A stretch of 63,971 nt of DNA, filler included, from Licmophora abbreviata (Eukaryota), in the NCBI GenBank assembly GCA_900291995.1. It is 11 parts of 11 records of this genome, joined end to end, with 100 filler letters (N's around TTAATTAATTAA, not from the genome) between each part and the next. Parts side by side here need not be neighbours in the genome. Positions count along the whole stretch, not along the records: positions 20,936 to 30,175 come from OLMU01004475.1; 10 more parts are not named here. One strand, 5' to 3'. The position numbers and the translations under genes were made by a program. The notes beneath the pieces were generated by a model that saw only the letters and a program-made list of their open reading frames with translations, ran no database searches and was not told the DNA's origin. This document shows, one piece after another, positions 25,938 to 28,469 of the stretch. Each line of letters begins with the position of its first letter. Within the stretch, counting starts at the first letter, position 1.

Positions 25938-26564
25938 GGTGATACGTCGTGATGAGGCGATCTAGTGAATTTCTTGAAGGCAGGTTCGAACGTGTTCACG
26001 TAACAACCCACGTAACCTCCGGTACTCAAAAGATCGCGGGGTTGAAGTACGAAGATCTGCTCGTCTGTTCGTCCACCGGATTGGAATGAAGATCGCGCGG
26101 CTACGCGCGAAACCGCAAGATGTGGAAGTCAGAACGTCGTCGCCGGCGGTTCACAACTCTCGACGCCGGCGAGTGATGGCTGCAATGGCAGACAGAGCGT
26201 CATGAATCGATCCGTGGCAAGAGAATAGCCGCACTGTCGTCTATTCTTTGTCGACTCTGCGGGAAAGGCTGAGGGGAAGCATAAGGAAAAAGTCTGAAGG
26301 CGGTTACACTACTTTCGGGCGATGGGCGGAACATCAGTCCAGGGACTTCATTTCCAGTTTGTATTGCACCCCAAGGCGACAATCCCCAGATGAAAGCAGA
26401 GCCTCGCCAAGCCCCCGTTTTAACATGGTTTTTTGCGAATGACAGAGGCCTTCACTCTCAAGACGAGGCGGACTGTTGCACATCGCAGACCAGATACCCG
26501 TAGCACTGAGGTACGTGCGCGCAAAGTTTCCAGGGGGATCGTATCGACCCGAATTGCAGCGACC

Positions 26565-26650
26565 GGCTCCTTGATTATTCGATTATTAGCTCTATCCGAA
26601 CATTTACCGTGTTGAATTAACCCAAACGATGCATGTATTATATGAGAGTC
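26565..26650 (+). ncRNA. Box C/D snoRNA 1, double guide for 18S sites equivalent to human Am166 and Um172
   Basis: Terminal stem GGCTC/GAGTC; C TTGATTA 26571, D' CCGA 26596, C' GTGTTGA 26609, D ATGA 26642. Guides TATTAGCTCTA and GATGCATGTATTA are antisense to conserved 18S UAGAGCUAAUACAUGC (rRNA sequence recalled, not in window). Confidence 0.85.
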
Positions 26651-26952
26651 TGTTGCAGTCGCTCCAAGAGGATTTTGTGACTTCTTCTGATGCGTCAAAA
26701 TGATCTTTGTTGCTCGTCGGTGAATTTCTCATAGCAACCTTGTACGTTTCTCTCACTCAACTGTGCTATAGCTGGGAGAAAGAACTAAGAGTCATCAGAA
26801 ACTCTCCACGAGTAGGACGCTCAACTTCAGCCAGTATGTTTCAATCTATCCTATTTGACCCTTTCAACGGGACAGGCAACCGATGGGAGAGAGCCGGGGA
26901 AGGTAAGTGGCGACCTCATGCAGTTCAGACCGCGACTGAAACTGCATCGAAC

Positions 26953-27037
26953 GGCTCTTTGATTATCTGTTATAATCTATGTCCGAACATTCCATGTTGA
27001 GAGTTCATCGTACAGATGCATGGCTTATATGAGAGTC
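26953..27037 (+). ncRNA. Box C/D snoRNA 2, paralogue of snoRNA 1; D guide antisense to the 18S 5' region UAAGCCAUGCAU
   Basis: Same stem and boxes (TTGATTA 26959, CCGA 26983, ATGTTGA 26994, ATGA 27029); 12-nt guide ATGCATGGCTTA; outer intronic stem ACTGCATC (26941) / GATGCAGT (27059). Confidence 0.8.
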
Positions 27038-27306
27038 TACCTAAAGCGAATACATCCGGATGCAGTCTGCCTTGACGATTCTTCTTTTTCTCGCTCTTTT
27101 TGGCGCCTACGTCTCACCCATGGTCGCATCGCGTTGCTTCTTGTTGTCACACACGTCCCTCCCCCCTCTATACTTGCCAGAGCGAGTGAGTCTGTAGTGG
27201 AACCAATCAAAACGTCTAGTGTAAAAAAAGGTATGTGGCTGCGGATGGAGTTCTGAACAGACTCGACATGGTGGCTTTGATCAGGCTCCTCTTTCTCAGA
27301 GAGAAT

Positions 27307-27388
27307 GTACCCTCATGACGAGCATTTTCGATATTTTCGGAACCTCATGACGAAACGATTCATCTGGTTTGTATTCTCTGAAGGGTAC
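27307..27388 (+). ncRNA. Box C/D snoRNA 3, guide antisense to LSU rRNA GAAUACAAACC
   Basis: Perfect 7-bp terminal stem GTACCCT/AGGGTAC; C ATGACGA 27315, C' ATGACGA 27347, D CTGA 27378; guide TGGTTTGTATTC 27365-27376. Confidence 0.85.
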
Positions 27389-28469
27389 TATGATATGTTA
27401 CGACCCAGCCTGATGAAAGCGATGAGACGACGTTTCCAACGAACGAAAAAGCGAATGACGAACTGTACACTCTGTACACTATGCATGAGTGCACGACACG
27501 CTGAGTGCTTTATACCAATTGATCCTGCGGACGCTTTTCGTTTCTGTTTTCTTCTTCTGGATACCGCGCTTCATCGTGGTTGTGTAGTTGTTTCATGAGT
27601 ACAAAAGGCTGCCATTCTGCCATGGAGCGTTGGCCGTGTCTATATGACACAATGGACAATTGTATCTCCGCCAATGGTAAAGCCAACACCAAAAGTTGAG
27701 CCGAGCAATTATAGGAAACGACCCTCGAAGACTTTTCTATAAAAGAAACACCGATGGGTCGAGTCGAACGCTCGTGACAACTCAATATCGAAACACGCAA
27801 CAACTTCGTATCTTTCCTCTGCCATGTCCGCTGCTGAGACGCTCACTAACACATGACTCTCTCTATTTTCCCATTTTCTACCGCTGCCTACTAGACGATT
27901 ATGATTACATTAATCGAGACTAAGACTTTCCTTGCTCTACACTCCATTCAAACTAGGATGATCTCTAGTAGAGTAATGATAAGCGACACTCTAGCTCTAC
28001 TCTAGCTGGCTCGCACACACCTTTGAATCCTCAGACCGTCTATCATGAAGACGCCAGTATGAGTCTCATTCTTTGTACTGCCCCCTACAGTACCTGAACG
28101 GGCAGAACAACCCACACACATGTTCAATGTATGATACCAGGCAACACTTGCCACCTGCCATCGTGGTCGCTGCCCTAATAGAGAAGCCACACGGGACTCG
28201 ACTCACTCGCGTGCAAATTTTCAAACGAGTGTGTCACGGGTCGTTGGGCGGTCGCGCGATGATGTGCGCAACACAAATTTCATCCACGTTGGGAATGACC
28301 AAAGCGATGACCGCAGTACGAGGCGCACGTAGCTTTGTAGGTGGCTCGCTGGCTCGAAAGTATTCTCGGTCTGCAGTGGAGCCAACGGCGGCGGCGCAGC
28401 GAGAGACACAAGACGAAAAACCAAAGACGTGTTCGTGTCGAGTCGTATTGCGCTGTTTTTCCTGTCACC

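Follow-up and report, generated by a model that had tools for sequence, protein, structure and literature searches.

A cluster of four box C/D snoRNAs with predicted rRNA guides, probably carried in the introns of a non-coding host gene, in the diatom Licmophora abbreviata

The window analyzed here, a 63,971-nucleotide (nt) stretch of DNA from the diatom Licmophora abbreviata (GenBank assembly GCA_900291995.1), contains in its OLMU01004475.1 part a gap between a light-harvesting complex (LHC) gene and an ARF gene, and it is almost certain that this gap holds a + strand cluster of four real box C/D small nucleolar RNAs (snoRNAs) with predicted ribosomal RNA (rRNA) guides. We further propose, with a probability of roughly 0.65, that the cluster is expressed from the introns of a dedicated non-coding host gene resembling GAS5 and UHG, a reading based on splice motifs and on analogy. 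The animal GAS5/UHG genes (SNHG genes) are non-coding snoRNA host genes with one snoRNA per intron, a 5'TOP-type promoter and a spliced RNA that is unstable, being sensitive to nonsense-mediated decay (NMD). An earlier reading of the same DNA (the original prediction) had given the gap this architecture, with three snoRNAs, one in each of three introns. A stem-closed C/D unit was indeed found within each of the three introns, but the third carries two, so that the snoRNAs number four rather than three and the one-snoRNA-per-intron rule of the GAS5/UHG class is broken. The snoRNAs of that prediction find strong support in rRNA complementarity, in homologues and in covarying stems, and intronic expression is supported by motif statistics and by analogy with the snoRNA cassettes of related organisms. 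The open reading frames (ORFs) of the spliced models are short (at most 52 amino acids, aa).

Box C/D snoRNAs in general are stable RNAs of 70-120 nt bound by fibrillarin, Nop56, Nop58 and Snu13, with a C box (RUGAUGA) towards the 5' end, a D box (CUGA) towards the 3' end, and an antisense element of 10 nt or more before D or D'. The four units all have recognizable C and D boxes: canonical in one, with a variant D box in a second, and with variant boxes throughout in the other two. U1 (26565..26650, + strand), a predicted double-guide box C/D snoRNA, has a C box UUGAUUA at 26571-26577, a D' box CCGA at 26596-26599 and a D box AUGA at 26642-26645, and is closed by an inner stem GGCUC/GAGUC and an outer stem pairing approximately 26554-26563 with 26658-26668. 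U2 (26953..27037, + strand) has altered guides, a C box UUGAUUA at 26959-26965, a D box AUGA at 27029-27032 and an outer stem pairing 26941-26948 with 27059-27066. U1 and U2 can be aligned with each other and are paralogous units, the first in intron 1 and the second in intron 2. Intron 3 contains snoA (27307..27388, + strand), the canonical unit, with a C box AUGACGA at 27315-27321, a D box CUGA at 27378-27381 and a 7-bp terminal stem GUACCCU/AGGGUAC, followed by the snoR41-like snoC (27447..27538, + strand), with a C box AUGACGA at 27455-27461, a variant D box CGGA at 27528-27531 and a terminal stem AAAAGCG/CGCUUUU. A strict C/D scan returned two units, snoA and snoC, and a relaxed scan of the whole window on both strands returned 12 candidates, four of which are U1, U2, snoA and snoC.

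To find targets for the guides, we used a sample of ribosomal DNA (rDNA) made up of eukaryotic contigs that contaminate prokaryote assemblies, fetched by an 18S 3'-end primer motif (at least 53 loci, 14 of them longer than 2.5 kb). The + strand of 26250-27950 was searched for exact antisense matches of at least 11 nt to these 14 loci, and three of the matches directly precede a D or D' box. These are the U1 D' guide (26584-26594), an 11-nt exact complement to 18S UAGAGCUAAUA in 8 of the 14 loci; the U1 D guide (26628-26640), a 13-nt exact complement to UAAUACAUGCAUC in one locus (L032), directly next to the D' target; and the U2 D guide (27016-27027), a 12-nt exact complement to 18S UAAGCCAUGCAU, again in 8 of the 14. 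The snoA D guide (27365-27376) is a 12-nt exact complement to the large-subunit (LSU) rRNA segment GAAUACAAACCA. A scan with this motif gave at least 67 loci; among the matches listed, 24 stand in the conserved LSU context UUUUCAGU..GAAUACAAACC.UGAAAG.GUGGCCUA, and the other 43 are chance matches in bacterial DNA. The snoC D guide (27515-27526) is complementary to 18S AGGAUCAAUUGG, and 18S with exactly this sequence was found in 10 contigs; in the primer-fetched rDNA loci the same site reads GGAUCCAUUGG or other variants. Thus five guides, each stopping 1-2 nt short of its D or D' box, have exact complements of 11-13 nt in conserved 18S or LSU rRNA. Many 11-mer rRNA matches confined to a single locus are due to chance, and an opposite-strand control produced one 11-mer match to 28S common to 6 rDNA loci, which means that bare 11-mers are not decisive and that position relative to the boxes is what counts. 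As a separate observation, the stretch 27448-27458 of snoC, in its 5' stem and C box, is identical in sense to an 11-nt 28S segment in 6 rDNA loci, probably by coincidence.

Under the fifth-nucleotide rule, methylation falls on the rRNA base that pairs with the fifth nucleotide of the guide, counted upstream from the D or D' box. The predicted targets of U1 are the 18S A and U of UAGA*GCUAAU*AC, 6 nt apart (asterisks follow the target base); that of U2 is the 18S G of UAAG*CCAUGCAU; that of snoC is the 18S A of AGGA*UCAAUUGG, the snoR41 site; and that of snoA is the LSU U of GAAU*ACAAACC, predicted without assignment to a known site. The numbering of the U1 targets in human 18S used here is presumptive. 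The excerpted human 18S table of PMC11550049 lists Am159 (SNORD45A/C), Am166 (SNORD44), Um172 (SNORD45A/B) and Cm174 (SNORD45C), and in that excerpt no site stands between Am27 and Am99. The predicted U1 targets fit human A166 and U172 in both base and spacing. Similar to human SNORD44 and SNORD45A/B, per the same excerpt (PMC11550049), the U1 guides would pair with the same 18S segment; unlike them, a single RNA, U1, bears both guides and has the boxes UGAUUA and AUGA. A comparison of U1 with the Rfam SNORD44 and SNORD45 families gave no match at E-values up to 10. The D guides of U1 and U2 (26628-26641 and 27014-27028) differ at two adjacent bases, UA in U1 and GC in U2, and this change moves the exact 18S match from UAAUACAUGCAU to UAAGCCAUGCAU, a similar segment near the 18S 5' end. 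The D' guide of U2 looks like a decayed U1 D' guide.

The closest known relative of snoC is suggested by Rfam family RF00205 (snoR41, clan CL00068), with whose model snoC aligns end to end. The snoC D guide ACCAAUUGAUCCU is one base apart from the snoR41 guide ACCAAUGGAUCCU, and the same base differs between the corresponding 18S sequences. Unlike snoR41, snoC has a D box CGGA rather than CUGA, and it scores 19.5 bits (E 4.9) against a gathering score of 40, short of family membership. As far as the sequences can tell, the resemblance of snoC to snoR41 is one of guide and overall layout only.

Homologues of the cluster were sought in metagenomes. A scan with the box-and-stem pattern common to U1 and U2 gave no matches, and a scan with only the two U1 guides and the gap between them gave 10 loci. 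Eight of the 10 (L054, L055, L056, L057, L059, L060, L061 and L062) have C, D', C' and D boxes and a terminal stem, all correctly placed; the other two (L058 and L063) are without boxes or stems and were dropped as chance matches before any alignment was made. The homologues come from seven other organisms; L054 and L059 are near-identical, and L059 was omitted from the alignments. In the nine-sequence alignment of the U1 family (A1, with L057 included), each of the five terminal-stem pairs is changed on both sides. Paired cells make up 79.6% of the total, compared with 60.1% in shuffles, and the covariation score was reached by none of 500 shuffles. For snoA, homologues were found in L054, L060, L061 and L062, with 92% of stem cells paired, five of five pairs doubly changed and again none of 500 shuffles reaching the score. 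For snoC, they were found in L054, L055 and L061 (that in L060 is incomplete), with 87.5% paired, four of six pairs covarying and three of 500 shuffles reaching the score. Controls in which the partner strand was slid were all lower than the true terminal stem.

We also built a covariance model (R1) from six metagenome homologues, with no sequence from the window and with L057 and L059 excluded. Run against the whole window at E-values up to 10, it returned only two matches: U1, with a score of 54.5 bits (E 5e-8), and U2, with one of 30.5 bits (E 0.0022). The order U1-snoA-snoC is the same in the related loci as in the window, and likeness between the window and these loci is limited to guides and boxes. 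Guides and boxes are kept in the seven other organisms. No counterpart of U2 was found in the eight metagenome loci. The pairing of a C box UGAUUA with a D box AUGA is present in seven of the nine aligned U1-family members (U1 and U2 of the window, L055, L056, L060, L061 and L062), and the U1-like unit of L057 has the D box CUGA. In the C/D kink-turn, a G-to-U change in box C together with a C-to-A change in box D swaps a G-C pair for a U-A pair, and the U-A box variant of the U1 family looks like such a compensated replacement. Some related loci contain further C/D units, which resemble Rfam families below threshold: L055 318-400 (snoR77Y, E 0.012), L054 962-1036 (plasmodium_snoR24, E 0.22) and L062 4418-4497 (snoZ185, E 3.8). 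In L057, at about 1787 and on the strand opposite the U1-like unit, there is a second U1 D' guide region (TATTAGCTCTAGATCGTGAGCCC), suggesting a duplicated unit.

Several results count against the four units being functional guides. No Rfam family was matched in the window at gathering score, so that none of the four was recognized; the Infernal/Rfam check suggested with the original prediction yielded for snoC only the weak snoR41 match. The D' guides of U2, snoA and snoC have no rRNA target, even with G-U pairs allowed, and all target checks were made on the rDNA of other eukaryotes rather than on Licmophora's own rRNA. We give almost no credence to the idea that the units resemble C/D RNAs by chance or are decayed copies with no function: the lack of recognition by Rfam, the non-canonical boxes of U1 and U2, and fold energies no better than those of shuffles (z -1.57 to +0.12) would agree with it, the last being a test that is uninformative for C/D RNAs, but it is contradicted by guides and boxes retained across seven organisms with covarying stems, by exact and correctly positioned rRNA complementarity, and by the E-value of 5e-8 from a model built on foreign homologues. 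With E-values allowed, Rfam gave two weak matches at the locus besides that of snoR41 over snoC. SNORA18 over 26674-26797 (23.8 bits against 70, E 0.37) would imply an H/ACA RNA, but no ACA box is present and the fold z is -0.09, so we regard it as chance; the matched region spans the proposed 3' splice site at 26771. CRISPR-DR19 at 27325-27356 falls in the 5' part of snoA and was rejected.

The related loci show how such cassettes are housed. In L054, a 617-nt intron holds U1-like, snoA-like and snoC-like units, and its flanking exons correspond to positions 2-86 and 88-268 of the Pantoate_ligase profile; L059 likewise has its cassette within a single intron. In L056, excising a 268-nt GT-AG interval that contains the U1-like unit turns an immediately stopped frame into a continuous 229-aa ORF. 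In L055, the U1-like, snoC-like and snoR77Y-like units are followed by an acceptor and then by an exon whose match to the GTP_EFTU profile starts at position 60. The hosts in L054, L055, L056 and L057 are protein-coding. Going by sequence, the snoRNA cassette is intronic in every related locus where this can be judged. By eye, L061 and L062 appear to have short, stop-filled exons between snoRNA-bearing intervals, and L062 seems to begin beside a divergent gene.

For the Licmophora locus itself, we infer the splicing of three introns from motif statistics and by analogy with these related loci. All three GT-AG pairs of the original prediction are present. The proposed intron 1 (26511..26771, 261 nt, + strand like all features here; donor gag/GTACGT) would host U1, intron 2 (26903..27180, 278 nt; donor aag/GTAAGT) would host U2, and intron 3 (27231..27587, 357 nt; donor aag/GTATGT) would host snoA and snoC. 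Between them would lie the internal exons, with the predicted lengths of 131 and 50 nt: exon 2 (26772..26902, between acceptor 26771 and donor 26903; 168 nt if an alternative intron 1 acceptor at 26734 is used) and exon 3 (27181..27230, between acceptor 27180 and donor 27231). A putative exon 1 (26200..26510) has its 3' end set by the donor at 26511, with 26200 as a placeholder, and a putative last exon (27588..28000, 28000 again being a placeholder) contains ORFs of at most 80 aa, none with Pfam support.

Consensus donors are concentrated at this locus. The motif AGGTA[ACT]GT occurs at four sites on the + strand of the window (24001, 26509, 26901 and 27229) and at four on the - strand. Three of the four + strand sites lie here, within 720 nt, and with 0.069 expected per 1.7 kb from base composition this is far beyond chance. 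We then looked for a strict donor motif (GT[AG]AGT or GTA[CT]GT) 40-80 nt upstream of 21 snoRNA units from eight sources, and found one for nine of them, against about 0.034 expected per unit: U1 (54 nt), U2 (50 nt) and snoA (78 nt) of the window, the U1 units of L054, L056 and L060, snoC of L061, and U1 and the third unit of L062. The first unit of every cluster with 100 nt of upstream sequence is preceded by such a donor, except in L057, which has a looser GTAAGA (the U1 units of L055 and L061 have too little upstream sequence for this test). Intron-internal units, such as snoA and snoC of L054, snoC of L055 and snoC of the window, are without a strict donor. By this spacing, U2 and snoA of the window behave like first-in-intron units. 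Among the acceptors, the strongest at the locus is the one at 27180, where 17 of 20 bases are pyrimidines and a 113-nt zone (27066-27178) free of AG precedes. The acceptor at 27587 uses the earliest AG downstream of snoC, with 27505-27585 free of AG (about 80 nt).

These motifs bear on whether the locus is spliced at all. Real snoRNAs could also come from an unspliced polycistronic precursor, freed by an endonuclease and exonucleases as in plant and yeast clusters, with the splice-like motifs left unused. We consider this unlikely: the three clustered consensus donors greatly exceed the 0.069 expected and sit at the distance seen in proven introns, where intron-internal units have none, two of the acceptors are preceded by AG-free zones, and the cassette is intronic in all related loci that can be judged. 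Speaking for such a precursor are the position of snoA and snoC in one interval and the capacity of the lineage to free several snoRNAs from one precursor, as indicated by L054 and L055, each with three units in a single intron.

Several details of the splice sites weigh against the proposed structure. The acceptors of introns 1 and 3 are moderately pyrimidine-rich (14 and 12 of 20, respectively), the acceptor of intron 1 is ambiguous between AGs at 26734 and 26771, and further donor-like sites occur at 26742, at 26834 and at 27186, the last being a GTGAGT 6 nt past acceptor 27180. A competing AG at 27299, with 15 of 20 pyrimidines, lies 8 nt before snoA. Moreover, the L054 cassette occupies one intron, so the internal exons of the window might be skipped or unused. 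An alternative reading is that of a single large intron (26511-27587, 1,077 nt) or of variable exon skipping, with exons 2 and 3 rarely or never included as in L054. The perfect consensus of the internal donors 26903 and 27231, their typical distance from U2 and snoA, and the strength of acceptor 27180, with its pyrimidines and AG-free zone, make this quite unlikely, even though the L054 and L059 cassettes each lie in one intron, the Neurospora UHG-like hosts skip exons according to an excerpt of PMC2780460, and the single-intron product would also be non-coding, its longest ORF being 43 aa.

With three introns or one, the spliced RNA appears to be without a long or conserved ORF. We surveyed stop-to-stop ORFs of at least 30 aa on both strands of 25950-28460; of the 59 found, none reached a Pfam gathering score, in agreement with the original prediction that the interval has no recognizable protein gene. 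A sub-threshold PGA2 match (20.7 bits against 24.2) was seen in an ORF running through snoA and snoC, and a 91-aa ORF at 28127 lies within the ARF upstream region. Across four splice models, the longest ORF is 52 aa, beginning at the ATG at 26439, running 24 codons to the exon 1 donor and stopping within exon 2. One result counts against the absence of coding capacity: when a 98-aa ORF that spans exon 2 was compared with 1.84 billion proteins by HMMER, two matches emerged, both to internal tandem repeats in long proteins. Single-copy alignments with these score 30-34 bits only, and we therefore do not credit the homology, the scores being inflated by summed repeat copies.

The host could instead be protein-coding, the snoRNA introns lying in the 5' untranslated region (UTR) of ARF1 or in an unrecognized small-protein gene. 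ARF1 is downstream on the same strand, and the hosts in L054, L055, L056 and L057 are coding. However, the ARF1 start codon lies 883 nt beyond 27588, and the absence of a strict donor in that interval argues against a cluster in the ARF1 5' UTR; as the ORF survey found no Pfam support and no ORF of the spliced models is longer than 52 aa, a coding host is very unlikely.

If the dedicated non-coding host is correctly identified, RNA polymerase II would transcribe it rightwards from a region common to the divergent LHC gene. The three introns, to judge from their motifs, would be spliced out and their lariats debranched and then trimmed to the ends protected by small nucleolar ribonucleoproteins. 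Intron 3 would need an extra cut between snoA and snoC, in the manner of the intronic clusters of plants and Ostreococcus. The RNA of the joined exons, in which the longest ORF (52 aa) ends upstream of two exon junctions, would probably be a short-lived by-product.

On the origin of the locus we offer a tentative proposal, to which we give somewhat less than even odds: that a three-snoRNA cassette has been kept across diatom-like algae in unrelated hosts and was here moved into a dedicated non-coding host, with duplication of a module making U2 and a lineage-specific site. The cassette would comprise an LSU guide, an R41-type guide and a double guide for A166/U172 whose C/D motif has the U-A substitution. 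Among its hosts would be a panC-like gene, a GTPase gene encoding a GTP_EFTU domain, and uncharacterized genes, and the occurrence of the same cassette in unrelated hosts suggests, as part of the same proposal, that it moves between hosts. In this genome a dedicated non-coding host would have been acquired or created. Tandem duplication of a module of donor plus snoRNA would then have divided an ancestral single intron into three and produced U2, and the two-base switch in the U2 D guide would create a lineage-specific methylation site.

The Licmophora locus can be compared with several known systems. In Neurospora crassa, per an excerpt of PMC2780460, five snoRNA clusters lie in UHG-like hosts that have ORFs of only 159-267 bp and undergo exon skipping. 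Similar to these and to GAS5/UHG, the Licmophora locus has several C/D snoRNAs in consecutive, here predicted, introns, and it has short exons and short ORFs; the spliced RNA has the look of a by-product. In humans, A166 is guided by SNORD44, which lies in GAS5. Unlike in the animal GAS5/UHG genes, two snoRNAs lie in the proposed Licmophora intron 3, and the splicing of the Licmophora gene is a prediction. In Ostreococcus tauri, intronic and clustered snoRNAs are mixed, with 72 intronic ones in protein-coding hosts (PMC7671301, in excerpt). As in plant and O. tauri clusters, intronic and clustered arrangements occur together, and more than one snoRNA may share an intron (snoA and snoC here, three units in L054 and in L055); unlike what that excerpt gives for O. 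tauri, no coding host is detectable at the Licmophora locus.

The host architecture is already well known elsewhere, and the locus extends that picture rather than overturning it. A full-text literature search, supplements aside, found no diatom snoRNA catalogue and no snoRNA host gene from a diatom or other stramenopile; in an excerpt of PMC4247016, a single snoRNA is mentioned, as a reference for quantitative PCR. Diatom snoRNAs and their expression strategies are almost undescribed. If the reading proposed here is true, non-coding snoRNA host genes occur in a further eukaryotic supergroup beyond animals and fungi, and such loci are passed over by gene finders as empty intergenic DNA. It would also provide four methylation guides, including one directed at a position that is unmethylated in human 18S, and a clear small case of guide retargeting after duplication.

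The genes that flank the cluster are, as the original prediction had them, an LHC and an ARF gene, both recovered by Pfam as a chlorophyll a/b-binding protein gene on the - strand and an Arf gene on the + strand. The snoRNA introns had also been described as longer than the norm for the window. The contrast was overstated: the LHC intron (25609-25870, - strand) is 262 nt and ARF intron 1 (28506-28777, + strand) is 272 nt, as long as the snoRNA introns, while ARF introns 2 and 3 are about 115 nt each. The relaxed scan of the whole window found no C/D candidate in either of these two introns. Finally, our rDNA searches revealed a good deal of contamination, with dozens of prokaryote assemblies and metagenome-assembled genomes containing short contigs of eukaryotic 18S or 28S rDNA (L001-L053, L064-L073 and 24 of L074-L140).

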